Shown here: positions 3,343 through 29,466 of the stretch, one piece after another
Layout of the letters: every line of letters starts with the position of its first letter
Numbering within the stretch: position 1 is the stretch's first letter
Origin: Escherichia phage vB_EcoM-813R9
Sequence record: ON470620.1
DNA: 38,938 nucleotides
Reading direction: 5' to 3' (one strand)
Program-made: the position numbers and the translations under genes
The notes under the pieces: generated by a model
The model's database searches: none
What the model saw: only the letters and a program-made list of their open reading frames with translations
What the model was told of the DNA's origin: nothing

Positions 3343-4352
3343 CGCGGCAGTTTTCCGTGGTCGCGTAGCCAGGCGGCAGTTTTCTCGATACCTTCATCCA
3401 GGGTGATGACCGGCTGATAACCTAACTCTTCCTGCGCACGCGTAATATCCAGCGTAAAGTCAAAATTCAACTTGGAGACGCCGTAGTGGGTCAGCGGCGG
3501 CTCTTTTGCTGACTTGCGGCCTAAACGCTCCATGCTGCGGGCGATCATATCCAGCATCGGGTAGGGGACGGAACGAATACGACAGTCAATATTCAACTCG
3601 TCGATCAGCTTCTGCACGATGCTGCGCAGTGTGCGATGCTCGCCGTTGGTGATGTTGTACACACGCCCGGAAGGTAGCTTATCGCAGGCTTCCTGGCTTG
3701 CCAGCCACATTGCGTGCACGGCATTTTCATAGTAGGTCATATCGACCAGCGCACTGCCGCCATGCGGTAACAGAATACTGCCGTAGTGGTGCATCATATG
3801 CGCCAGACGGGGAATAAAGACTTTATCGTGCGGTCCGAACAGACTTTGTGGGCGCAGAATAGTAAAGCGCGTTTGTGGATTCGCCTGCGAAAGCATATTG
3901 ATCACTTCTTCGCTGGCTGCTTTGCTGCGGGCAAACTCGTTGGCGAAGCGGTGAGGGCGAAAATCTTCTTTAATATCGCGATGGTGGTGATAATCGAAGT
4001 ACAGGGAGGGGGAAGAGATATGAATAAAGTTACGCACACCCCAGGCGACAGCCCATTCACCCAGGCGGCGAGTGGCGCGAACGTTAGCCAGATCGAAAGC
4101 CTGTTGTGTCCCCCAGGGTGAGGTAAAGCTGGAGCAGTGCCACAGCGTATCAATGCCCGCGAGCATCACTTTAGCTTGTGATGAAACCAGCTCGGTCAGA
4201 TCCGCCGGAACAAACTCTGCGCCCATTTTTTCCAGCAATTTGCCCATTGCCTCGTTGCGACCGGTCGCTCGCACGCTGATGCCTTTCTGGCATAAAAACT
4301 CTACCGCGTTTCGACCTAAGCCGCTGGTGGCGCCGGTAACCAGTACCTTCAT
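3339..4352 (-). CDS. ybjS: NAD-dependent epimerase/dehydratase family protein YbjS
   Basis: ORF 3339..4415 trimmed to Met22 ([15 protein letters not shown], Rossmann GxxGxxG motif), giving 337 aa. Confidence 0.85.
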
Positions 4353-4450
4353 ATCAATCCACTGTTGTTGAGAAAATAACGTGCGCATTCTTCCGTGATT
4401 TCCCCCATGATGCAATGGGAAACATGAAAGAATAACGCAGGTTTTGTCGA

Positions 4451-5203
4451 TTAATCTGTGCTTTGTTCTGCCAGTCTGGCGATTTGTTTTGCCATTCCGC
4501 GAAAAATAAACAGATGCGCGGGGATCATCAATAACCAGTAAAACAGCCCCGGCATACCGTGCGGATGCCAGAAAGCGCGGACATCGATAGTACGATAGTC
4601 GCCTTTATCTTCCAGGCTAAAACACAGTCGTCCCAGCCCCGGCGCTTTCATGCCAAATAACAACGTAAGTTGTTTTTCCGGTTCAACGACAATCACTTTC
4701 CAGCTATCCACCGCATCGCCAGTCTGTAAATATTCGCGCTCCGGGCGGCCTTTCGCCAGCTTATGACCGATCGCGCGGTCCATCAACGCCCGTGTCTGCC
4801 ACAAAATATTGCCAAAGAAATAACGCTCTTTACCGCCGATTTGGTTCACTACCTGCCATAAAGCAGCAAGGCTGGCGGACGTTTTAACGGTAAACCCCGC
4901 CTGTTTGGCAAAATAACCGTACTCCGGTCGCCAGCGGGCAAAGGCCTGAGCGTCGTAGCCCCAGTCGCTGGAGTTGACCAGTTTTTCCTCCTCTTTCAAC
5001 GTGCTACGTACCGCGTCATCGAAAGCGATCAGCCGTTGTGGGATGAGTGCACGTAGCGCGGTATCATCCGCCAGCAGATCGTGTTTCAGCCCCTGAATCA
5101 ACGCCCTGGCGGTGGTGGGCGGTACGGAAGTAATCACATTGAGAAACCACACCGAAATCCAGCGGGTGGGGAGGGGGATGGGGATCAACCAGCGGCGCTT
5201 ACC
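4451..5203 (-). CDS. ybjT: YbjT C-terminal portion; 5' part lost in the assembly gap
   Basis: Reading frame continues upstream of ORF 4451..5188 (..[15 protein letters not shown]..) until it hits the N-run. Confidence 0.75.
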
Positions 5204-8785: not shown

Positions 8786-10045
8786 ATGTTTAGATTATCT
8801 AGTGTCAAGATTGAAGGTTTTTGGGGAAGACTAAATGCATCATGTTCATTTAATGAAGATGTAAATATTATTATTGGTCGAAATGGGACCGGTAAAACAA
8901 CCTTTATGAATATTCTTCACTCAGTTCTGGCATTAGAACTCGAATCACTAAATGAGAATAGTTTTGATAATGTAACAATAAAAATAAAAGAAGGAAGCAA
9001 AACTAAAACAATAAAAGTTGTGAGTAAATTTGACATAACTAAAGCTTTGCCTACGTTTGAATATACAATTTCTAGAAAGAAATATATTATCAGATCCTTT
9101 GAAGATCGTAGACTACCTATATATATGAGGAGAAAATATCAGGAAGACGTTGAAAAACTTAAGTTAGAGTTAGATAAATTAGTTGCTTTATCTTCTCTAT
9201 CAGTTTACCGACTTAGAAGCGGTGAAGATTTTGAAATCAGAGACAAATATGGCTCAAAATTAATCAACCCTGTTGATTACCGATTAGAACAATTATTGCA
9301 GAACCTAACAAAATATCAACTTTATTTATCACAAAGAGCTCGTGATGTTTCTGCAATATTACAGAAAGAGGTTCTTGCTTCTATTCTTTATAGTAAAGAA
9401 GATGGTATCGATGACACATTTAACTTTTCTTTTGATAAAGAAAAAGAACGTAGAAATTTAATAGCTGCATATTCTCAGCTTGGAGCTTTTGATAGTGATG
9501 TCAGAAAGAAGATTAACTTTCACGTTGAATCTATTGCCAAAACATTTGAAGAATTACGACTTGCAGAAAAAAATAACAGAAATATTTTAAATGTAGATTA
9601 CAGATCATTTGAGGCATTACGAAAGACGCAAAGAATTATAAAGATGTCTTTAAAATCCGAGGAGAAAATAAAAAACATATTTCTTCCTATAAATCTATTT
9701 TTAGAAACATTACATGAGTTCATAACCGATAAAAAATTTAATTTTATCTCCGGTGAGCTAGTAATAGAAAACGAGCATGGGCCGATTAGCCATAGTAATT
9801 TATCGTCTGGTGAAAAACAGCTATTAATTCTTTTTATTGAAACTTTGCTACAGCAAAACAAACCTTTCATCTATCTTACTGATGAACCAGAATTATCGCT
9901 ACATATTGCATGGCAACGAAAAATAATACCTGCAATCAAACAACTTAATCCTAATGCGCAAATTATCGCCGCTACGCATTCACCAGAAGTGGCTTCTAAA
10001 TATCGAAATGCAATCTTTGATATGGAGAAATTGGTTCATGGATGA
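8786..10045 (+). CDS. ariA: ABC/SMC-like ATPase (AAA15-type); candidate AriA of a PARIS-like defence module
   Basis: 419-aa ORF in AT-rich DNA; Walker A GRNGTGKTT, ABC signature LSSGEKQ, Walker B FIYLTDEPELSLH, H-loop ATHSPE; RBS aaagga. Confidence 0.6.
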   Translation: MFRLSSVKIEGFWGRLNASCSFNEDVNIIIGRNGTGKTTFMNILHSVLALELESLNENSFDNVTIKIKEGSKTKTIKVVSKFDITKALPTFEYTISRKKYIIRSFEDRRLPIYMRRKYQEDVEKLKLELDKLVALSSLSVYRLRSGEDFEIRDKYGSKLINPVDYRLEQLLQNLTKYQLYLSQRARDVSAILQKEVLASILYSKEDGIDDTFNFSFDKEKERRNLIAAYSQLGAFDSDVRKKINFHVESIAKTFEELRLAEKNNRNILNVDYRSFEALRKTQRIIKMSLKSEEKIKNIFLPINLFLETLHEFITDKKFNFISGELVIENEHGPISHSNLSSGEKQLLILFIETLLQQNKPFIYLTDEPELSLHIAWQRKIIPAIKQLNPNAQIIAATHSPEVASKYRNAIFDMEKLVHG

Positions 10046-10889
10046 TTTCCATTATTCTGCCGAAGCAGAAAATGTAATGAATTTATTTTACCAAGCTGAA
10101 GCCATGGTTTATGTTGAAGGCCCAGATGATATTTGCTTTTGGGAAATCATCTTTAATAAAGCTAGTTCATTAAAGGTTGAAATCAAAGATGTTGGCGGCT
10201 GTGAAGAATTAAAAAAATATATTGATAGAGTTACTGATGAAGATCTTCAAATTATAATTGCATGTGATGCAGACTTCACTACATTTGAAAATGAGGAAAA
10301 CGCTGATAGTCGCATTGTAAAAACTTATGGGCACTCCATCGAAAACACGTTTATTGACAAAACAGGCATATATAAGGCAATAAAAACTCTAGGAAAATTA
10401 CCTCAAAAGATAATGAACGATGTCAACGTCGATTCTTGGACAGAAGACTTTTATACCAAAATGGAACCCCTAATAAAACTTGATATATACAATCATATTT
10501 ATAGAAAAGGCATTTCAGTTATTGGTGACAGTGCAGATCGTTTCATGAAATCTAGAAAATCAAATGAAATTTGCGAGCAAAAAATCACGAGTTACAAAAA
10601 CACCATCATTGAAAAATTAGGTGTGGAACCAGATAACATCGATTCATCTTTCAAATCAAAATCGATAGAATACAGAAAGTGGCTTAGAGGTCATTTTCTT
10701 TTTTCTGCAGTACATAGGTACATTAGCACAACTGCAGAAAAAAATGGAAAAAAAGTATCCTTATCATATGAATCATTATATTCCAATTTAATGAATACAT
10801 TTGAATCCAATTTTACCAATACTCATATTGAGTTTAATCATTACCACGAAAAAATTAAAGCCATAAATATGCCACACGAAATGAAATAA
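10038..10889 (+). CDS. ariB: Toprim/DUF4435-like protein; candidate AriB effector of a PARIS-like module
   Basis: Start ATG overlaps the ariA stop (ATGGATGA); N-terminal VYVEGPDD with Glu27 and a downstream IIACDAD (DxD) motif as in Toprim/OLD-family nucleases; AT-rich. Confidence 0.55.
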   Translation: MDDFHYSAEAENVMNLFYQAEAMVYVEGPDDICFWEIIFNKASSLKVEIKDVGGCEELKKYIDRVTDEDLQIIIACDADFTTFENEENADSRIVKTYGHSIENTFIDKTGIYKAIKTLGKLPQKIMNDVNVDSWTEDFYTKMEPLIKLDIYNHIYRKGISVIGDSADRFMKSRKSNEICEQKITSYKNTIIEKLGVEPDNIDSSFKSKSIEYRKWLRGHFLFSAVHRYISTTAEKNGKKVSLSYESLYSNLMNTFESNFTNTHIEFNHYHEKIKAINMPHEMK

Positions 10890-16861: not shown

Positions 16862-18628
16862 ATGAACACCACACTGACACCCGCAGATCTCGATCCCCGT
16901 CGGCAGGCCATGCTGCTGTACTTTCAGGGATACCGCGTAGCCCGCATTGCTGAAATGCTGGGCGAGAAAGTTGCAACCGTTCACAGCTGGAAAAAACGCG
17001 ACAAGTGGGGTGACTATGGGCCGCTGGATCAGATGCAGCTCACCACCGCCGCACGCTACTGCCAGCTCATCATGAAGGAGCACAAAGAAGGGAAAGATTT
17101 CAAAGAGATTGACCTGCTGGCGCGCCAGTCGGAGCGCCACGCGCGGATCGGCAAGTTTAACAATGGCGGCAACGAAGCTGACTTAAACCCTAACGTCGCC
17201 AACCGCAACAAAGGCCCACGCCGTCAGCCTGAAAAGAATGTTTTCACCGATGAACAGATTGAGAAGCTGGAAGAAATTTTCCATTCCTCCATGTTCAACT
17301 ACCAGCGCCACTGGTGGGAAGCCGGAAAAACCAACCGCATCCGCAACCTGCTGAAGTCACGCCAGATCGGCGCGACCTTCTATTTTGCCCGTGAAGCCCT
17401 GATTGACGCCCTGCTTACCGGACGTAACCAGATTTTCCTTTCTGCCAGTAAGGCACAGGCCCACGTCTTTAAGCAGTACATCATCGACTTCGCCAAAGAA
17501 GTGGAGGTGGAGCTGAAAGGCGATCCGATGGTGCTTCCCAACGGGGCCACGCTTTACTTCCTCGGCACCAATGCCCGCACGGCCCAGAGTTACCACGGCA
17601 ACCTGTATCTGGATGAATATTTCTGGATACCGAAATTCCAGGAGCTGCGCAAAGTGGCTTCCGGTATGGCTATTCACAAAAAATGGCGACAAACCTATTT
17701 TTCCACGCCATCCAGCCTGACACACAGTGCTTATCCGTTCTGGTCCGGTGCGCTGTTCAACCGTGGGCGCAACAAAGCCGATAAGGTGGACATCGACCTG
17801 TCCCACAGCAATCTGGCCCCCGGCCTGCTGTGCGCAGACGGGCAATACCGCCAGATAGTCACCGTGGAAGATGCGGTGCGCGGCGGCTGTAACCTGTTCG
17901 ACCTTGACCAGTTGCGCATGGAGTACAGCCCGGACGAATACCAGAACCTGCTGATGTGCGAGTTTGTGGACGATCTCGCGTCCGTGTTCCCGCTCAGCGA
18001 GCTGCAGGCGTGCATGGTAGACAGCTGGGAAGTCTGGACTGACTTTCATGCACTGGCCCTGCGCCCGTTTGGCTGGCGCGAAGTATGGATCGGTTATGAC
18101 CCGGCGAAAGGTACGCAGAATGGCGACAGCGCCGGATGCGTGGTGGTGGCACCGCCAGCCGTGCCGGGCGGCAAGTTCCGCATTCTTGAGCGTCACCAGT
18201 GGCGCGGAATGGACTTTCGCGCCCAGGCTGACGCCATCAAAAAACTGACCGAACAGTACAACGTGACCTACATCGGCATCGACTCGACAGGTGTCGGCCA
18301 CGGGGTTTACGAGAACGTGAAAGCGTTTTTTCCAGCCGTCCGGGAGTTTGTCTACAACCCCAACGTTAAAAACGCCCTGGTACTCAAGGCCTACGACATT
18401 ATCAGTCACCGTCGTCTGGAGTTTGACGCCGGACACACCGACATAGCGCAGTCATTTATGGCAATCCGTCGCGCCACCACCGCCAGCGGCAACCGCCCAA
18501 CCTATGAAGCCAGCCGCAGCGAAGAAGCCAGCCATGCCGATCTGGCCTGGGCAACAATGCACGCACTGTTTAACGAACCGCTGCAGGGCGAATCCGCCAA
18601 TACCAGCAATATTGTGGAGATTTTTTGA
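16862..18628 (+). CDS. P: Terminase large (ATPase) subunit P
   Basis: 588-aa ORF P2 gpP-like; stop overlaps Q start (TGATG). Confidence 0.9.
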   Translation: MNTTLTPADLDPRRQAMLLYFQGYRVARIAEMLGEKVATVHSWKKRDKWGDYGPLDQMQLTTAARYCQLIMKEHKEGKDFKEIDLLARQSERHARIGKFNNGGNEADLNPNVANRNKGPRRQPEKNVFTDEQIEKLEEIFHSSMFNYQRHWWEAGKTNRIRNLLKSRQIGATFYFAREALIDALLTGRNQIFLSASKAQAHVFKQYIIDFAKEVEVELKGDPMVLPNGATLYFLGTNARTAQSYHGNLYLDEYFWIPKFQELRKVASGMAIHKKWRQTYFSTPSSLTHSAYPFWSGALFNRGRNKADKVDIDLSHSNLAPGLLCADGQYRQIVTVEDAVRGGCNLFDLDQLRMEYSPDEYQNLLMCEFVDDLASVFPLSELQACMVDSWEVWTDFHALALRPFGWREVWIGYDPAKGTQNGDSAGCVVVAPPAVPGGKFRILERHQWRGMDFRAQADAIKKLTEQYNVTYIGIDSTGVGHGVYENVKAFFPAVREFVYNPNVKNALVLKAYDIISHRRLEFDAGHTDIAQSFMAIRRATTASGNRPTYEASRSEEASHADLAWATMHALFNEPLQGESANTSNIVEIF

Positions 18629-19662
18629 TGGGAAAGAGTAAGAAGAACCGCGCTGCGGCGACGAAACAGATCCAGCTTAAAAGTCAAACTACAGCCGAAG
18701 CATTCAGCTTCGGCGATCCCGTTCCTGTTCTGGACCGCCGAGAACTGCTGGATTATGTGGAATGCGTACAGATGGACCGTTGGTATGAGCCGCCCGTCAG
18801 CTTTGACGGACTGGCGCGCACCTTCCGCGCTGCCGTGCATCACAGTTCCCCGATTGCAGTAAAGTGCAACATTCTGACCAGTACCTATATCCCTCACCCG
18901 CTGCTCAGCCAGCAGGCTTTTTCACGTTTTGTGCAGGACTACCTGGTATTTGGTAACGCCTACCTGGAGAAACGCACGAACCGCTTCGGTGAAGTTATCG
19001 CCCTTGAGCCTGCCCTGGCAAAATATACCCGACGCGGGTTAGACCTGGATACCTACTGGTTTGTGCAATACGGTATGACAACCCAGCCATATCAGTTCAC
19101 GAAAGGCAGCATTTTTCATCTGATGGAACCAGATATTAATCAGGAGATCTACGGCCTGCCCGGCTATCTTTCTGCCATCCCATCCGCTTTGCTCAACGAG
19201 TCCGCCACGCTGTTCCGCCGCAAATATTACATTAACGGTAGTCATGCAGGCTTCATCATGTACATGACCGATGCCGCGCAGAACCAGGAGGATGTGAACA
19301 ACCTCCGCAATGCGATGAAAAGCGCCAAAGGGCCGGGCAACTTCCGCAACTTGTTTATGTACTCACCCAACGGAAAGAAAGACGGGATTCAGATCATCCC
19401 GCTGTCAGAGGTGGCGGCAAAAGATGAGTTTCTTAACATCAAGAACGTGAGCCGGGATGACATGATGGCAGCGCACCGTGTACCGCCGCAGATGATGGGG
19501 ATTATGCCTAGTAATGTTGGCGGGTTTGGGGATGTTGAAAAGGCTAGTAAGGTTTTTGTCAGGAATGAGTTAATTCCGCTACAACACAGAATATCTGAAA
19601 TTAACTCATGGATTGGACTTAATGAAGAACTGGTTAAATTTACCTCATATGAATTAGATTAG
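18628..19662 (+). CDS. Q: Portal protein Q
   Basis: P2 gpQ-like (LDRRELLDYVEC, NESATLFRRKYY, GPGNFRNLF); ORF-track start 18625 is TTG, ATG at 18628; last ~40 codons AT-rich. Confidence 0.9.
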   Translation: MGKSKKNRAAATKQIQLKSQTTAEAFSFGDPVPVLDRRELLDYVECVQMDRWYEPPVSFDGLARTFRAAVHHSSPIAVKCNILTSTYIPHPLLSQQAFSRFVQDYLVFGNAYLEKRTNRFGEVIALEPALAKYTRRGLDLDTYWFVQYGMTTQPYQFTKGSIFHLMEPDINQEIYGLPGYLSAIPSALLNESATLFRRKYYINGSHAGFIMYMTDAAQNQEDVNNLRNAMKSAKGPGNFRNLFMYSPNGKKDGIQIIPLSEVAAKDEFLNIKNVSRDDMMAAHRVPPQMMGIMPSNVGGFGDVEKASKVFVRNELIPLQHRISEINSWIGLNEELVKFTSYELD

Positions 19663-19713
19663 GCATATAGAAATGCACCTAACATCGAAAGTGAGATTAG
19701 GTGCAAATAATAA

Positions 19714-20865
19714 TCAGCTTATTTGACCTAATAATTCTTCCGCATATTTTTTATCACTATCCATCCGTTGCTGAACAGCATCCCTAAGATGCTCTTTCAA
19801 CTTATCAGGATAATTTTTACATGCATCAATCAATTTTGTTCGTAAAAGCTTAGCACCATTTACAATGGTGGCATAAGCTAAAGCATCAGCTAACTCCTTA
19901 ACTTTCACATCATCAGTAATGATAGAAGGGATTGAAAAAACGTAATATTTCGCAACATAATTTTGCGTATACCAACTATCATATAACAATCCAATTAAAG
20001 CATCACCAAGATCACCTCTTCTTTTAAATTTGCTACCAAATGTATTACCCCATGTTCCTATAGCTCCTTTGGTCGCATCAGAATAGAAATCCAAATATCC
20101 TTTTTTGCACTCTTCGATGATTATATTTTCCATTCTAATTAAAACATCATCAGGAAGATTTCTCCATGCGCTCGGCTTAATTATTCTAAATACATTAGCA
20201 AACTCAACATTATTGCTAGCCTTGCGTAACTCATCACCTAGCAACCGCATTGCGGCTTTTTCTTCCTCTCCTGAAAAGCGTTGGTTTATTGCTTTGAATA
20301 TAGAATCAATTTCCTTGGTTGGCCTTTCATTAAAGCGAGAAATTAAACTTTGGAAAAAATCTAGTAGTTTTTTTTCTGGAATTTGTGATATTAAAGCTTC
20401 TGCATAATCAGAATTATTTACAAAGTGAACCTCATAAATTCTTTCAAGAATTGCTGTGTAATCGAACTCAGCAACATCTCTTTTTAAATACTTAATAAAA
20501 GTATCCAACATGATCAATATTCTCATGCAGGAATCTTCTGTATCAGGGAAATTGTCATGTGTCCTTGGATTTCTTATACACTGATAGTAGCCTCTTAATA
20601 GTGCTTCAAATCCGCGCTGTTCGTCCTGCTCTGATACAGATTGAAGACTATTAATTTGGATTCTAGGTGATTGTCCACCCAAAACAGTACCAACAAGCTG
20701 AGCCCCATCCCCTTCACATTGCCCTTTTTCACGCAGCAAAGTTGTTAGATATTTGGTTCCTGCAAGTATTGCATCCGAAAATTGGTTGTTTTCCAGCCTA
20801 TTACCAATCGCTTCAACTAATTCCGCATCGAAATTATTTGTATTAAAGTTATTTTTTACAAACAT
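19714..20865 (-). CDS. Accessory protein with N-terminal HEPN-like domain (TIGR02391/Hypoth_Ymh-type, Rx4H) and large uncharacterised C-terminal domain; candidate abortive-infection/defence effector
   Basis: 383 aa from the ATG after an aggggag RBS (ORF-track start is GTG at 20868); motif IRNPRTHD = R98-x4-H103 preceded by ..QRGFEALLRG..; AT-rich; occupies the Q-to-A accessory slot (old/tin position in P2). Confidence 0.6.
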   Translation of the reverse strand: MFVKNNFNTNNFDAELVEAIGNRLENNQFSDAILAGTKYLTTLLREKGQCEGDGAQLVGTVLGGQSPRIQINSLQSVSEQDEQRGFEALLRGYYQCIRNPRTHDNFPDTEDSCMRILIMLDTFIKYLKRDVAEFDYTAILERIYEVHFVNNSDYAEALISQIPEKKLLDFFQSLISRFNERPTKEIDSIFKAINQRFSGEEEKAAMRLLGDELRKASNNVEFANVFRIIKPSAWRNLPDDVLIRMENIIIEECKKGYLDFYSDATKGAIGTWGNTFGSKFKRRGDLGDALIGLLYDSWYTQNYVAKYYVFSIPSIITDDVKVKELADALAYATIVNGAKLLRTKLIDACKNYPDKLKEHLRDAVQQRMDSDKKYAEELLGQIS

Positions 20866-20950
20866 CACACTCCCCTTTTTTTGAAAGGGTATTGTATTGA
20901 ACCTTGTTAAGATTTCTCAGATAAGTATCACACTATCTCAAGTTGCGCGC

Positions 20951-20970
20951 GCTCGTATCCCCGCCACGCC
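20951..20970. other. Candidate cos (cohesive end) core
   Basis: Reverse complement reads ggcgtggcggggatacgagc, resembling the GC-rich 19-nt cohesive ends of P2/186-type phages (recalled, not aligned). Confidence 0.35.
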
Positions 20971-21019
20971 TGCCCGCTTTATGTAGTGGTTTTCATGCAC
21001 CTGCATGATCTACGCAAAA

Positions 21020-21174: not shown

Positions 21175-21408
21175 TTAATGCAGCCAGCTGTCGTCTTCCC
21201 ACACCTTCTGCATAATTTTCATCACTTGTTTTCTTTCTTCGTCCAGTTGCAGTCCGGTTAGTTCCACACCGTTAGAGCTACCTTTGCGAATGCGAATTAC
21301 CGTTTTGGGATACAGGGGGCGCAGATTGCGGTAAAGCTCGGATTCAAGGGCGTCCAGGGTAGACTGGCTAATCTTCTGCTCTTTATCGATCATTATTTCA
21401 ATGCGCAT
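21175..21408 (-). CDS. DinI-family protein (Tum/antirepressor-like SOS module component)
   Basis: MRIEIMIDKEQ...ELTGLQLDEERKQVMKIMQKVWEDDSWL resembles E. coli DinI over its whole length; RBS gaggtg. Confidence 0.7.
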   Translation of the reverse strand: MRIEIMIDKEQKISQSTLDALESELYRNLRPLYPKTVIRIRKGSSNGVELTGLQLDEERKQVMKIMQKVWEDDSWLH

Positions 21409-21418
21409 AAAAGTCACC

Positions 21419-21607
21419 TCAGCTGATGACATCCATTGAGCGGTTGTATTCGTGGGTTCTGATTTTTGCCATGAGTTCATCAGTCAATTCAGAAACCCAC
21501 TGCAGAGCCAGCCCCTTCTCTTCATCACTACACTCACTAGCCGCTACAAGCTTAAGAAAAAAATCAATGCGCTGGAGCTTCAAAGACTCCAAAAAATAGT
21601 CCTGCAT
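21419..21607 (-). CDS. Hypothetical small protein, first gene of the LexA-box-controlled operon
   Basis: 62-aa ORF from an ATG with a strong aggagga RBS, directly downstream of a LexA box. Confidence 0.5.
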   Translation of the reverse strand: MQDYFLESLKLQRIDFFLKLVAASECSDEEKGLALQWVSELTDELMAKIRTHEYNRSMDVIS

Positions 21608-21650
21608 CTTTCCTCCTATGACACCACACGCAATACTGTACGCATAACCA

Positions 21651-21666
21651 CTGTTTATATTTACAG
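21651..21666. promoter_or_regulatory. LexA box (SOS operator)
   Basis: Perfect CTGT-N8-ACAG with AT-rich spacer (ctgtttatatttacag) upstream of the orf62/DinI-like operon. Confidence 0.6.
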
Positions 21667-21760
21667 TATATAATAATCTTACTGATGTAAAACGTTTTTT
21701 TACGTTCATCAGCCTGATATGCCTGGTATTATAAAGAGCACGAATTGTTAACCCGCGTAA

Positions 21761-24172
21761 TTAATACAGGTTCCGCCACTGATCATCTTCTTGCAAACGC
21801 TGGTTCCGATAGAAGATACGCAGGCCTGCTCCTGACGGAATACTGCCTCCGCGAAGGAGTAAATCGACCTCTTTCTCGCTGCCATCAAATCCTCTGGACT
21901 TCAGCTCATACACGAGCTGCAGTCGCTGATGGTCTGTAATTCGCTGTTTGTAGTCTTTACGCCGTTTCGGTTTCACCAGGCGTAACCTTGCAGCCAGTTC
22001 CCGGCGCTCTTTTTTGTTCATACTGTGCAGGTAATCGTGCAACTCCTTGTCATCCATGCTGGTAATGTCCGTTCTGGGGTCCCCATCAGCTGATTTATCT
22101 TTCTCCTGTTGGTTCAAATTTTCAGCAAGGGGACAGTTATTGCCACGAGTCCAAGGGGCGCAAGCGCCCTGGGCTGCCGCCTCCTGAACGTCAACGGCTT
22201 TACGAACCATTTTCCACTTCACTGCATGAGTGCAGATCTTGCCCTCTGCAATGGGTGACCAGATGCCATAAATACGAATGCCGTGATCGCCATAGGCGGT
22301 CGGCTCTTCGTTGATTTCATAAGCGGTTCTGATGAGGTGATATTTACGGGGAACCAGTACGCCGCCCTGCTTCATGATGTAGGTGGCAAAACAACCAGCA
22401 TCAGCAGCAGCCAGAATGGCATCAAGACGCGGGTTATCCAGTACCGGCGCACCTGCTTTTTTGTCACCCTGTTGCCTTGCCGCCTGACCAGCCAGCAAGC
22501 GAAGTTCACGGTAAGCCTGACGCCCCGGAATACCAAAGAAGCGGAATTGCTGAACACGATGCAGAGACGCCCAGGCATTCACGTATTCAGCGTTATCACG
22601 CAGAGATTTACCCGTTTCCTTGCTGATCTCGCCAGCCAGACCACGACCGTCAATGTTCTTACTGATATATTTCGCGATGTAGCTTGTCGGCGTTCCTTTG
22701 CGCGGGTTAATCAACTCAGACTTAAAGCGCGGCCCAGTGTTATTGCCCAGCTCCTCGCGGTCTTCACGGATGGCAAACTTACGCAGTAATGCAGTGATGG
22801 CACGGCGGTCTTTTTTGCGCATGAAACACAACAGGTGCCAGTGAACTGTGCCATCATGATGCGGCTCAGCCACCCGCACGCCATACCAGCGCAACCCGGC
22901 TTTGTGCATCGCCTTACGAAATGCAGCAAACATGCCGACCAGATAATCGCTGCTTTGTCTTACCGTCGCGTTTGTCCAGGTCGGGTTTGGTCTGCCGTTA
23001 TTTAGCGTGGAATGGAAACGCGACGGACAGGTGATAGTGTAGAAAACGGCGCAGTCACCGCGCATTTCCGCGATAAGCTCCAGACCTTTAACACAGGCCA
23101 TCATCTCATTGCGGCGATGCGCAGGGTTGCTGCTGCTGGCGTTTACCACATCCTCCATGTCCAGCGTGTCGCCGTCTTCGTTCACCAGTTCATGAGAACG
23201 GAAAAACTCCAGCGACTTACGGCGCTGCTCACGTTTATGCATCACGGCTTCATAGCTGACATAAGGAGATGCTTTTTTGCTGACCAGGCAAACAGCGCGC
23301 AACTGCTCTTCCCGCCATTCGCAACGCATCTTCCATAATTTCCGATACCACCAGTCGGCGCACAACATACGCGCCAGCGAACCCGGAATGAGTTCATAGG
23401 GCACGGGTTTACGGCGGTTTCTTTTCCGACGGAGTTGCTCAAACGCAGGTGGGATGACATCCAGACGCAGGGTTTCCGCTGCCACCTTTTCCCATGTCTT
23501 GCGGATTTCTTCTGGCTTAACGTCATCGGTGGCATACAAATCACCACAAGCTGCATCAAGGCACATACTCATATGCGCAGCTACCAGGGTGGACAGGCGT
23601 TTCACCTGATCCTGACTCATTTCAGGCAGGATCAGCAGGCCGTCCAGCCCTTCATGGCTTGCCATAAAGCGAAAAGATGCAGATAGCTGACTGTCGCGTA
23701 CATGCTCCAGTCGTTCCAGACATGGCTTAATCGTCTCACGTAAATAGCGGGAATAAGCCTTTGGCCTGCCCAGGCTGCTGAAGTATTCAATACGTTGCAT
23801 CAGCGGCTTGCTGATATTGGAAGGCTGGGCGTTGACGTCCGCCAGAATGACCATGTCTGAATTAAAACGCTGCTGCTCATGCGCCAGCTTTGCCCGGCTA
23901 ATGAGCTTATCCTGCTCCATTTCGCGCTGGACAGGATCACGTGATTCATTAAAGAAATAACGCTCCCAGACCTGATCACTCAGTGCCTCGCGGCGCAACT
24001 GTTCCTGCTCGTTATCGGCAGCGTACAGAGTGATCAGGTTTGAAAGCGTAGAAACCGGCGCAACTTCCGCCGGGTCCAGATAAGGGTTAATGGCCTTTTT
24101 CGGGCTGTTCCATGAGAATGCTGCGGCAGCCTCGTTAAAGCCGCAGCACTTGTTCATATCGGCATGACTCAT
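21761..24172 (-). CDS. A: Rolling-circle replication initiation protein A
   Basis: 803-aa ORF with HUH motif (TVHWHLLCF) and catalytic tyrosine region ([14 protein letters not shown]); P2/186 gene A position. Confidence 0.9.
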
Positions 24173-25026
24173 GCACGTACTCCGTACACGGCAGAACTAT
24201 CCACGCCACGCGAATAATCAAATCCCATCCAGCAGCGCGGCCCGGAAACAGCAATGATTTCTGTTGCTGATTTACCCTCGCCAGCTGCCACACCGATGCT
24301 GCGTTTTACCTTGATATAGTGGTGAGTAAAATTGCGATACAGCGAACGGATCAGGGATGTGTCACTGTTAGAAACAATGACCGGATGTCCTTCTGATGAC
24401 CGATGTTCAAGAACGGATGCCAGGTGATACTGGTCATCTTCAGTGAAACCATCAGTGTGATAGCCGGAAAACGTACCGTCATATGGCGGATCGCAATACA
24501 CCACATCTCCCGCCTTCAACATCGCCAGCGTTTCATCAAAGCTGGCGCAGATAAACGTTGCTCGCTGGGCTTTTTCTGCAAATGTGCGAAGTTCTTTTTC
24601 AGGGAAATACGGATTTTTATAATTACCGTAGGGAATGTTGAAATGCCCGCTCTTGTTATAGCGACATAAACCACGGTAACCGTGACGATTGAGATACAGG
24701 AAATATACCGCTTTCATGAAATCAGTAATTTCAGTTGAGCAGTTAAACTCCTGCCTTATGTTGTAATAAGCCACCTCCCTGTTTGCGATCTCAAATAAAA
24801 CTCTGGCGCGAGATATAAACGATTCACAATCAGCGGCAACCTTTTTATAGAGGTTGATTAAATCAGGATTAATATCCGCAACCAGATAGCTGGGATAATC
24901 CGTTTCCATCATCACAGCACAGGAACCCGCGAAAGGTTCAACCAGTCGCGGGCCAGCAGGAAGGTATTTTTTCAGTTCTGGCATAATGGCGGTTTTATTT
25001 CCCGCCCATTTCAGGATAGTGCTCAT
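24169..25026 (-). CDS. DNA adenine methyltransferase (Dam-like)
   Basis: [11 protein letters not shown].. N-terminus, AdoMet motif EPFAGS, catalytic DPPY; stop overlaps gene A start. Confidence 0.85.
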
Positions 25027-25250
25027 ACAGCACCTCCGTTGTAATGTTTGCCTTTCAGTTCTGCGATTTCCTGACAGGTAATGCAAAGCTGCACTCCCGG
25101 AATGGCGCGGCGTCGTGCTGGCGGAATTGGCGCTTCACATTCAATGCAAAGTACGCGTGACACGCCCGGTGATTTGGCACGGGCTGCACGGATATGGCGC
25201 TGGCGTTCTTCTTCAACGCGCTGCTGTACGAGATCCATTGCATCAGCCAT
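25023..25250 (-). CDS. TraR/DksA-family C4 zinc-finger protein
   Basis: 75 aa with CIECEA...CITCQ four-Cys finger typical of phage TraR-like proteins. Confidence 0.75.
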   Translation of the reverse strand: MADAMDLVQQRVEEERQRHIRAARAKSPGVSRVLCIECEAPIPPARRRAIPGVQLCITCQEIAELKGKHYNGGAV

Positions 25251-25483
25251 TAGTGGATCTCCTGCGCTTCGTTCTGGATTGCTTCAGCAGTCACGCGCAG
25301 CAGTTCTGCCGCTTCCACGTGGTTTAGCTGGCGGGATGAGATATGACACGCCAGGCTATCAAGGCGAGCAGCCATTGCTTCAGCCCTTGCCCGGCGTTCT
25401 TCCAGACGAGCCTCTGTCAGTAAAATATTAAGCCCTGCGTCATCCGGTCCGGTTTTAGTCGTGAGGGTTTCAATATTACGCAT
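25250..25483 (-). CDS. Hypothetical early protein
   Basis: 77 aa from ATG preceded by aggaga RBS (ORF-track start is TTG two codons upstream). Confidence 0.55.
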   Translation of the reverse strand: MRNIETLTTKTGPDDAGLNILLTEARLEERRARAEAMAARLDSLACHISSRQLNHVEAAELLRVTAEAIQNEAQEIH

Positions 25484-27789: not shown

Positions 27790-29466
27790 ATGAATTCATT
27801 TGCCATCGTTATACTCTTATTAGCATTTCTCGCCCCTGTTCTAGCTGTAATATTATTTAAACAAAGTAAAAAACACAAAGCGGCTATAGATAACCTGACA
27901 GCTAACAACATAGCCCTTTCTAACCAACTGATTGAAAATCAAGAAAAACTAGCACAGACCGTACGAGAATTATCAGAGCTTGAAGGGCGAGCAGCACCAT
28001 TGTGGCAATACGAAGAATTGCACAGCGCAGTAATGGATGCAGAGAATAAGATAAAAAATGCGGACTCAATAGCCAAGCAAAAAATAGATGAAGCCCAAAT
28101 TAAGGCGGCTAAAACAGTAAACGAAGCAAATTATCAAGCTCAGATGACAATAAGCAACGCTAATAGCGAAGCTATAGCAATCACCAAAGACGCTCGCGAT
28201 GCACGCCTGAAAGCCAAAGAACGTCTTGATAATGCTAATAATAAAGCAAATGAGCTAATCTCAAATGCTAATGACAATGCAGTAAAAATTATTTCTGATG
28301 CAGAAGAAAGAGCAAAGGAGATTGCTGGTTCAGCATATGAAGCTAAAGAGTTTGCAGAAAAATATGAAGCAGTTGCAAAATCAATGAAAAATAAAATTGA
28401 AGGTTATGGTGATGAATGGATCATCCCTAACCGTAGTGTACTTGATGAGCTGGCAGAAAATTATGAATTTACAGATGCAGGCAAGGAATTACAAAAAGCC
28501 AGAGAGTTAACCAAATCATTAATAAAAACTAATAAAGCTGCTTCGTGTGATTATGTTGAGCAAAACAGGCGTAATACTGCCATAAACTTTGTTTTGGATG
28601 CCTTCAATGGAAGAGTTGACAGTATTTTATCAAAAGTCAAACACAACAATTTTGGAAAACTTTCCCAAGAAATAAAAGATGCATTTCAACTAGTAAATTA
28701 CAATGGCTCTGCCTTTAGGTCCGCAAAAATAAGTGACATCTATCTTCAGGCAAGACTCAACGAGCTAAAATGGGGTGTAGCAGTTAATGAAATTATGCTC
28801 GAAGAAAAAGAAGAGCAAAGAAGGATTAAAGAACAGCTTCGTGAAGAGGAAAGAGCTCGTAGAGAATATGAAAAAGCGATAAAAGAAGCTGAAAAAGAAG
28901 AAAAAGCTATTCAGCAAGCTATAAATAAAGCAACGAAAGAACTTATGCTTGCAAATGAAGAACAACGCTTAGCTTTAGAGCAAAAAATAGCTGAACTACA
29001 GTTAAAATATGAAGAAGCTGAAGCTAAAAATCAACGAGCTATTTCTATGGCTCAACAAACCAGATCAGGCCACGTCTATATCATTAGTAATATTGGTTCA
29101 TTTGGCGAAGATGTATATAAAATTGGAATGACACGCCGCCTTGAACCACTTGATCGTGTTCGTGAACTCGGAGATGCTAGTGTTCCTTTTTCGTTCGATG
29201 TTCATGCGATGATTTATAGTGATGATGCACCATCATTAGAAAACCATCTGCATAAAGTTTTCAACGAAAAGCAGGTCAATAAAATTAACTCACGAAAAGA
29301 GTTTTTTAACGTAAATTTAAAAGAAATCAAATCAGTTATTGAAGACATGAACATCAACGCCCACTGGACAATGTTTGCAGAGGCGAAAGAATATAGAGAG
29401 TCTCTATCTATTGAGCAGGAGCGCAAAGCAGCCACTTCCGCCAACGATGAACTACATGTTGCTTAG
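27790..29466 (+). CDS. Membrane-anchored coiled-coil protein with C-terminal GIY-YIG-like (T5orf172/MUG113-type) domain; candidate defence/superinfection-exclusion cargo
   Basis: 558 aa; N-terminal TM helix FAIVILLLAFLAPVLAVILF; long Ala/Lys/Glu-rich coiled-coil; C-terminal GHVYIISN..VYKIGMTRR..PFSF..ENHLH..REFF; AT-rich; RBS aaagga right after the cI stop. Confidence 0.65.
   Translation: MNSFAIVILLLAFLAPVLAVILFKQSKKHKAAIDNLTANNIALSNQLIENQEKLAQTVRELSELEGRAAPLWQYEELHSAVMDAENKIKNADSIAKQKIDEAQIKAAKTVNEANYQAQMTISNANSEAIAITKDARDARLKAKERLDNANNKANELISNANDNAVKIISDAEERAKEIAGSAYEAKEFAEKYEAVAKSMKNKIEGYGDEWIIPNRSVLDELAENYEFTDAGKELQKARELTKSLIKTNKAASCDYVEQNRRNTAINFVLDAFNGRVDSILSKVKHNNFGKLSQEIKDAFQLVNYNGSAFRSAKISDIYLQARLNELKWGVAVNEIMLEEKEEQRRIKEQLREEERARREYEKAIKEAEKEEKAIQQAINKATKELMLANEEQRLALEQKIAELQLKYEEAEAKNQRAISMAQQTRSGHVYIISNIGSFGEDVYKIGMTRRLEPLDRVRELGDASVPFSFDVHAMIYSDDAPSLENHLHKVFNEKQVNKINSRKEFFNVNLKEIKSVIEDMNINAHWTMFAEAKEYRESLSIEQERKAATSANDELHVA

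Follow-up and report, generated by a model that had tools for sequence, protein, structure and literature searches.

Rousset et al. (2022, PMC9122126) defined the region between A and Q of P2-like prophages as a hotspot (gpA-gpQ) with 1,650 gene arrangements, and validated from it old/tin, a DUF4238 protein, a three-gene system, DprA-PRTase and a TIR system. In the stretch of DNA discussed here (hereafter the window, 38,938 nucleotides analysed as a whole), this region carries a gene for a 383-residue protein with a HEPN domain at its N-terminus. What does such a gene do for the prophage, and is it a defence system contained in a single chain?

The window represents an E. coli prophage of the P2/186-like type, with annotated terminase, portal, capsid, tail, CI/CII, integrase and replication endonuclease genes, and over the tested 2.2 kb it is 100% identical to strain EC11 and many others. 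Two further AT-rich islands hold PARIS (AriA/AriB, 8786-10889; PADLOC E 5.7e-40 and 2.3e-24) and a 558-aa PD-Lambda-1 protein (27790-29466; E 3e-120), so that of the three cargo slots only the HEPN cassette lacks a recognised system.

The gene and its reading frame

The gene lies between the portal gene Q (18625..19662, plus strand) and the replication gene A (21761..24172, minus strand), on the strand opposite to Q.

19714..20865, minus strand: coding sequence of the 383-aa protein, Ymh-type HEPN plus predicted alpha-solenoid; stop codon at 19714-19716

The open reading frame itself spans 19714..20868 (minus strand) and counts 384 codons from a GTG or 383 from the ATG at 20865. The latter is the most likely start, since all 31 of 31 aligned homologues begin there with M-F/Y/L-x-K, and the RefSeq product (WP_000497736, labelled 'TIGR02391 family protein') also has 383 aa. 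GC content is 0.33-0.41 over 19501-21000, against 0.52-0.60 in the adjacent phage genes, and by our own estimate a 384-codon frame would stay open by chance in DNA of 34% GC with a probability of about 1e-13. Full-length homologues form 34 clusters (35-92% identity) from Klebsiella, Vibrio, Aeromonas, Marinomonas, Sulfurovum, Desulfovibrio and metagenomes, and their length is nearly constant at 382-400 aa. An earlier reading made from the sequence only had described a 383-aa protein in AT-rich DNA on the strand opposite to Q; the open frame, the dip in GC and the full-length conservation bear this out. Opposite-strand open reading frames also occur within the gene, for example one of 100 aa at 20105..20407 (plus strand), and we take these as by-products of the AT-rich composition.

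A cargo slot between cos and Q

The position of the gene can be narrowed down with the help of the following features.

20952..20970, minus strand (reads 20970..20952): cos cohesive-end 19-mer GGCGTGGCGGGGATACGAG, a close match to the P2 cohesive-end sequence
20866..20941, minus strand: cassette-specific upstream region with a promoter-like site, a Shine-Dalgarno sequence and a small hairpin
20920-20891, minus strand: promoter-like site CTGAGA-18-TACAAT, weak and sigma-70-like
19663..19713, no strand assigned: spacer of 51 bp that separates the convergent stop codons of Q and the HEPN gene, with a hairpin of -15.7 kcal/mol (z -4.15)

The cos 19-mer occurs only once in the window and lies upstream of the HEPN gene, so that the gene falls into the interval that separates cos from the 3' end of Q. 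This cos-Q interval measures only 167 bp in P2 and contains solely the terminator tQ there, and the old/tin genes of P2 are found on the A side of cos. The sequence-only reading, which had assigned the gene to the old and tin slot of P2, therefore needs correcting: the HEPN gene occupies the cos-Q interval, old/tin the A-cos interval.

Alignment with two other prophages locates the junction. The window, CFT073 and phage 500465-1 have in common the A-side sequence, a terminator hairpin, cos and 'GCGCGCAAC'; beyond 'GCGCGCAAC', CFT073 equals the window bar one base, whereas phage 500465-1 diverges completely. Homology to sibling prophages stops 9 nt downstream of cos, which marks the cargo junction. 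In phage 500465-1, a TIR-domain gene of the same orientation begins about 70 nt past the point of divergence, at a distance from cos equal to that of the HEPN gene. In CFT073, the Q side is occupied by the same HEPN gene, and the A side has two extra hypothetical genes. The two sides of cos therefore exchange cargo independently.

The cassette corresponds to 19663-20941 of the window and comprises one gene, flanked by cos and Q. Its GGGGAG Shine-Dalgarno sequence is partly within the small upstream hairpin (weak, z -1.9). The promoter assignment is tentative, as a promoter scan found no more sigma-70-like sites than expected from shuffled sequence. The spacer hairpin probably serves both genes as a terminator and lies where P2 has tQ. 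In short, the gene is stand-alone AT-rich cargo in the gpA-gpQ hotspot of P2-like phages, and its site is a validated defence hotspot on a mobile element.

The protein has been catalogued before at this very place: Table S5A of Rousset et al. lists WP_000497736 as 'Hypoth_Ymh', for instance in CFT073, and it is not among their tested systems (PMC9122126). The only HEPN protein that these authors cloned from P2 loci is the 'Putative HEPN' of pFR103, from E. coli S88 (PMC9122126). We considered whether it might be the same protein and rejected this, its sequence being different (MNDIFVLT...), so the pFR103 result says nothing about WP_000497736. Its listing under the additional tested systems rather than the validated ones (PMC9122126) does imply that a HEPN protein at gpA-gpQ is no guarantee of a phenotype on a small phage panel. 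Literature searches for TIGR02391, Hypoth_Ymh and PF09509 yielded, besides unrelated papers, nothing but the 2013 HEPN census. No main text among the searchable papers mentions WP_000497736, and we found no functional study of the protein there either. In the accessible part of the DefensePredictor supplements, 'TIGR02391 family protein' occurs only in a name-level table without WP_000497736, and the protein is not listed as tested.

Distribution and genomic surroundings

The gene is present in 52 of 5,426 complete E. coli genomes, always at an identity of at least 99%; it is full-length in 51 of these carriers and covers 78% in the remaining one. As the neighbouring DinI/A region is common to about 1,280 genomes, only a small minority of such prophages carry the HEPN cargo. 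Among 50,697 phage records a single one has the gene, namely Klebsiella phage Kp4865-2, with 100% amino-acid identity.

More distant homologues are found outside phages as well, in chromosomal islands and in metagenome-assembled genomes (MAGs) of many phyla, beside defence-type genes. A homologue from Aeromonas dhakensis (53% identical) resides in an unrelated, lambdoid prophage with NinB, Rha and Cro-like genes, where most neighbouring genes run in the opposite direction to it; another, in a Sulfurovum MAG, is near an OLD-like AAA_15/AAA_21 ATPase, and a third, on a metagenomic contig, sits among DUF4145-HEPN, GIY-YIG, ImmA/IrrE-HTH and BilD/ubiquitin-like genes. The upstream neighbours differ in each locus examined. 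We also looked at the small downstream open reading frames in Aeromonas and Sulfurovum as candidates for a conserved partner gene and rejected them, since they are unrelated; with neighbours that are never alike, there is no conserved partner gene in these loci.

The N-terminal HEPN domain

The protein consists of two domains, the first of which belongs to a known family.

20491..20835, minus strand: N-terminal HEPN domain (Pfam Hypoth_Ymh), residues 11-125
20557-20574, minus strand: catalytic motif R98-N99-P-R-T-H103 within the HEPN domain

It matches PF09509 (Hypoth_Ymh) over profile positions 2-117 of 119 (E 2.9e-23; 82.5 bits, cut-off 25) and TIGR02391 of NCBIfam with E 1.2e-11 (44.8 bits, cut-off 39.45). 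Residues R98, N99, R101 and H103 are invariant in a 32-sequence alignment. Furthermore, R[N/D/S]xxxH is kept in 85 of 87 divergent representatives, selected for a mutual identity of at most 50% and each with a complete HEPN and C-terminal domain. Monomer structure prediction gives the all-alpha helical bundle of the HEPN fold. The N-terminal domain is thus a HEPN domain of the Ymh/TIGR02391 type that has retained its catalytic motif, R98-x4-H103, as had been proposed at the outset, and the conservation of this motif shows it to be under selection. Searches of the PDB by sequence gave no relatives of either domain at E <= 10.

Ymh/PF09509 was put in the HEPN superfamily, with a conserved R-x4-6-H, in the census of Anantharaman et al. 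(2013, PMC3710099). The Ymh architectures recorded there are solo domains or fusions to paraMORC ATPases, AbiJ-NTD1 and AbiTii, and Ymh HEPN proteins are often encoded beside restriction-modification genes (PMC3710099). According to its text, the HEPN domain is C-terminal in the pMORC and AbiTii fusions of Ymh (PMC3710099).

The C-terminal solenoid domain

The second domain makes up the remaining two thirds of the chain.

19717..20478, minus strand: C-terminal domain, residues 130-383, a predicted HEAT/ARM/PUF-like solenoid

Residues ~130-383 are all-helical save one small beta-hairpin at 257-266, and structure prediction arranges the helices as a solenoid of stacked helical hairpins. The domain is therefore best described as a predicted all-alpha solenoid of the HEAT/ARM/PUF-like kind. 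Its structural matches to PUF proteins do not outrank those to importins, condensin HEAT subunits or PP2A-A, and Foldseek against the PDB and BFVD gave zero matches at E <= 1e-3. By sequence it could be placed in no named repeat family: a Pfam search with 16 divergent C-terminal domains (E <= 1) returned scattered noise with no consistent family and no repeat family, and PADLOC 2.0 lacks models both of the full protein and of this domain. The earlier reading had recognised no match for the C-terminal domain; given its solenoid fold, the domain is not featureless. These C-terminal 250 aa represent a solenoid that is undescribed so far.

Conservation of the domain is strong and includes the motifs G270-T-W-G-N-T-F-G277, W298-Y-T-Q-N-Y303, R244-x-E246 and N351-Y-P353. 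Polar and aromatic motifs of this kind are unusual for a pure scaffold.

A constant module behind different effectors

The occurrence of the solenoid in other proteins is of key importance for its interpretation. A profile of the C-terminal domain alone was searched against 1.84 billion cluster representatives and found 514 clusters at E <= 1e-3, 83 of them at E <= 1e-30. The family is spread over Pseudomonadota, Campylobacterota, Acidobacteriota, Bacillota, Planctomycetota and others. Head domains were sorted for the best 150 of the 514 clusters: a Ymh HEPN precedes the C-terminal domain in 98, little or no N-terminal extension is present in 34 (most of which we take to be gene fragments), and 18 have another N-terminal domain of at least 100 residues. 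Of the latter, 16 were scanned: 15 proved to be Ser/Thr protein kinases of ~450 aa and one a CHAT protease of 695 aa.

Each of the three kinds of head belongs to a class that serves as effector in known defence systems, with matches to PD-T4-6 and mad6 for the kinases and to SAVED-CHAT for the CHAT protease. As it stands behind three unrelated enzymatic heads (HEPN, kinase and CHAT), the solenoid is a constant C-terminal module, on which the effector is swapped. The suggestion that the protein combines a sensor with an effector gains real support from these kinase and CHAT fusions, its strongest new evidence, the sensing half being what we infer. Among the kinase-solenoid relatives is a 448-aa protein of Pseudomonas azerbaijanoccidentalis. 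A Pseudomonas kinase-solenoid relative adjoins a DUF4145 HEPN protein and UmuC. Housekeeping genes predominate around the CHAT version and around one of the kinase versions, which tempers the defence argument. The kinases known from the P2 hotspot itself (pFR102 proteins 2 and 3) were considered as carriers of the solenoid and discarded, as hmmsearch gave no match at E <= 10.

A working model and its alternatives

With moderate confidence, we read the protein as a single-chain RNase for abortive infection (or superinfection exclusion) with a solenoid sensor, carried by the prophage as single-gene cargo (a 'moron'). The defence reading draws on the conservation of the motif, the HEPN kin in defence proteins, the swapping of effectors, the hotspot site, the company of PARIS and PD-Lambda-1, the defence-type neighbours of homologues and the integrity of the gene. 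HEPN dimerisation is the general activation rule for HEPN RNases. In our model, for which we infer expression, trigger, dimerisation, RNase activity, RNA target and defence phenotype alike, the protein would be made in the lysogen from its own promoter and held inactive, with the alpha-solenoid acting as the sensing or regulatory module. Upon infection by a competing phage, the solenoid would bind a phage-derived ligand, most likely a protein and less likely RNA or a small molecule, allowing two Ymh-type HEPN domains to build a composite R-x4-H active site. The active RNase would then cut cellular and/or phage RNA (tRNA, rRNA or mRNA), so that translation halts and the infection aborts.

Several other roles can be imagined for the same two domains. 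An improbable one, still defensive, is that the solenoid does not sense anything and instead forms a PUF/HEAT-like RNA-binding platform that selects the substrate (e.g., a tRNA or a phage transcript). The structural comparison does list PUF proteins, albeit no better than importins, condensin HEAT subunits and PP2A-A, and the repeated tripartite motif of the PUF type is not evident. Moreover, the same module stands behind kinases and a CHAT protease; these act on proteins, for which the selection of an RNA substrate is a poor fit.

Slightly less probable again is a fused toxin-antitoxin or addiction role, in which the C-terminal domain inhibits the HEPN domain in cis and the gene stabilises the prophage or island or takes part in a stress response. 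HEPN toxins are indeed common in toxin-antitoxin systems, as in HepT/MntA including fused forms (PMC13000451), and a single-gene cassette on mobile elements would suit this role. A fused inhibitor without differential stability cannot, however, give the usual post-segregational killing, and both effector swapping and the hotspot setting are typical of defence. The two roles are not exclusive either, as the CapRel-type fused toxin-antitoxin defence proteins illustrate.

Least probable of all is that the protein serves the phage itself, as a counter-defence RNase against host immune RNAs or signals, a transcript regulator or a silent MtlR-like HEPN: although the gene lies on a phage beside cos, hence at one end of the packaged DNA, and some HEPN families such as MtlR are regulatory (PMC3710099), the catalytic residues are almost universally retained, homologues exist outside phages in islands and MAGs beside defence-type genes, and the counts given above (1/50,697 phage records, 52/5,426 E. 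coli genomes) speak for dispensable cargo rather than a phage function.

Returning to the single-chain RNase with a solenoid sensor, a bolder version can be formulated, which we regard as possible yet rather doubtful. The solenoid may be an undescribed, widespread pattern-recognition module that senses a conserved phage component and drives a HEPN RNase, a Ser/Thr kinase or a CHAT protease, depending on the head.

Significance

HEPN RNases are recurrent in phage defence, and the present protein offers a compact system in which to ask how a single-chain HEPN protein is activated, with 383 aa, no partner gene or NTPase and a presumed regulatory half that is reused with kinases and a protease. 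Should this half recognise a phage component, it would constitute a new sensor family for bacterial immunity and account for one kind of 'unknown' gene carried in P2-like hotspots. Should it prove a true pattern-recognition module, it would mark out a new family of immune proteins, namely single-chain sensor-effectors that are non-STAND and ATPase-free, for which the CFT073 or P2-like E. coli copy would be a tractable model. Genetics are feasible at once, the gene being present in the well-studied uropathogen CFT073 and in Klebsiella P2-like phages. Finally, the cos-Q interval, which measures just 167 bp in P2, forms a separate cargo slot, and this matters for parsing the contents of the hotspot.

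Comparison with known systems

In PADLOC, the protein comes closest to PD-Lambda-3_B, matched in the C-terminal half of the model (E 2.4e-14), followed by Aga_HEPN, which is Argonaute-associated (E 2.1e-9). With PD-lambda-3 subunit B (PADLOC PDLC03987; from the E. coli functional selection of Vassallo et al. 2022), the protein shares the Ymh/PF09509 HEPN subfamily and the origin in the E. coli accessory genome, and PD-lambda-3 is used as an abortive-infection reference system in a preprint (bioRxiv 10.1101/2025.11.03.685801). The likeness is confined to the HEPN domain: the match to PD-Lambda-3_B is not full-length and aligns residues 9-125 only, with profile positions 139-258 of 270, and the accessible part of the DefensePredictor supplement places PF09509 at residues 142-261 of PD-Lambda-3_B. 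PD-lambda-3 has its HEPN domain C-terminal in a 270-aa protein without an alpha-solenoid, whereas here it is N-terminal and followed by a C-terminal domain of 250 aa. Furthermore, PD-lambda-3 consists of two genes and is listed with a PD-(D/E)XK nuclease domain, whereas the cassette (19663-20941) has a single gene and no PD-Lambda-3_A partner.

In general layout, the protein resembles AbiD/F/J/U2/V, ApeA and the CBS-HEPN protein DS-11, which likewise join in one polypeptide a HEPN RNase and a non-catalytic domain thought to be regulatory. They employ other HEPN subfamilies and other partner domains, whereas here a leading HEPN domain is joined to a new solenoid. DS-11, a one-protein system, is one of four other HEPN-containing systems validated in the DefensePredictor paper, and mutations of its HEPN catalytic residues or CBS Y157A abolished defence (PMC13092281). 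It is a close precedent in concept.

P2 old/tin occupy the same gpA-gpQ hotspot adjacent to cos, but on the A side, whereas the HEPN gene is on the Q side; neither Old (an ATPase-Toprim nuclease) nor Tin is homologous to the HEPN protein. The closest functional analogy for a defence protein built as effector and then solenoid is DSR2, which has an N-terminal SIR2 NADase effector followed by a helical-repeat (HEAT) region that binds a phage structural protein. DSR2 is far larger, its effector is a SIR2 NADase and not a HEPN domain, and it gave no sequence match and no specific structural match in our PDB searches; the analogy is a lead, not a result.

Set against these systems, the listing of WP_000497736 as hotspot cargo by Rousset et al. 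and the existence of HEPN-based single-gene defence candidates are already known. The HEPN-first domain order, the undescribed solenoid module and the swapping of effectors on it are new.

Cargo slots on either side of cos

The point at which the cargo of the sibling prophages diverges can be placed exactly, namely at the cos 19-mer plus 'GCGCGCAAC', as follows from the comparison of the siblings.

Window 20942-20970; sibling loci L009 4380-4640 and L008 5140-5400: cargo breakpoint

Past this breakpoint, the window and CFT073 carry the HEPN gene and phage 500465-1 a TIR-domain gene, and on the A side of cos CFT073 holds two further hypothetical genes. The gpA-gpQ "hotspot" (Rousset et al. 2022) is thus made of two independent slots, with cos dividing them.

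In the window, a hairpin lies at each end of the HEPN gene.

19663-19716, minus strand: stable hairpin (-15.7 kcal/mol, z -4.15) in the spacer that separates the stop codon of the HEPN gene from the convergent stop codon of Q
20856-20900, minus strand: weaker hairpin, CCCUUU/AAGGGG (z -1.9), overlapping the Shine-Dalgarno sequence of the HEPN gene

The former is likely a bidirectional terminator, and the latter might lower translation of the HEPN gene.

Relatives of the HEPN protein

Some members of the solenoid family are longer: P0040 (559 aa) has about 180 additional N-terminal residues ahead of HEPN, and P0037 (508 aa) and P0163 (460 aa) extend 80-125 residues beyond the C-terminal end of the solenoid, with no Pfam match in any of these extra regions. 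As a separate observation, UmuD/UmuC-type genes (Peptidase_S24 and IMS) repeatedly lie within a few kilobases of family members.

L002/L003 (Aeromonas) 574-2685; L004 (Sulfurovum) 3573-4838; L020 (Pseudomonas) 8850-10127: UmuD/UmuC-type genes

Chance hitch-hiking on mobile islands might account for this proximity.

Recognised defence systems elsewhere in the prophage

PADLOC finds two systems in the window.

8786-10889, plus strand: PARIS, two genes, AriA (ABC-type ATPase, 419 aa; E 5.7e-40) and AriB (DUF4435/Toprim, 283 aa; E 2.3e-24)
27790-29466, plus strand: PD-Lambda-1 protein (DUF4041, 558 aa; E 3e-120), covering the PADLOC model almost end to end

The PARIS island has a GC content of about 31% and is flanked by baseplate gene V and virion-morphogenesis genes, and the PD-Lambda-1 gene occupies an AT-rich slot with the CI repressor and integrase as neighbors. 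The prophage thus has two recognised defence systems in addition to the HEPN gene.

Genes around A

24169-25026 (approximate; 24570-25427 in compared locus L001), minus strand: DNA adenine methylase, directly downstream of A
21175-21709, minus strand: two genes between A and cos, one DinI-like (77 aa in RefSeq), the other small and hypothetical

The methylase could influence restriction or defence interactions. After the DinI-like and small hypothetical genes comes a terminator hairpin rich in GC (GGCCCGCCAGAACTGGCGGGCTTTT, approximately 21036-21012), and this arrangement presumably resembles the region of the DinI-like Tum antirepressor of phage 186.
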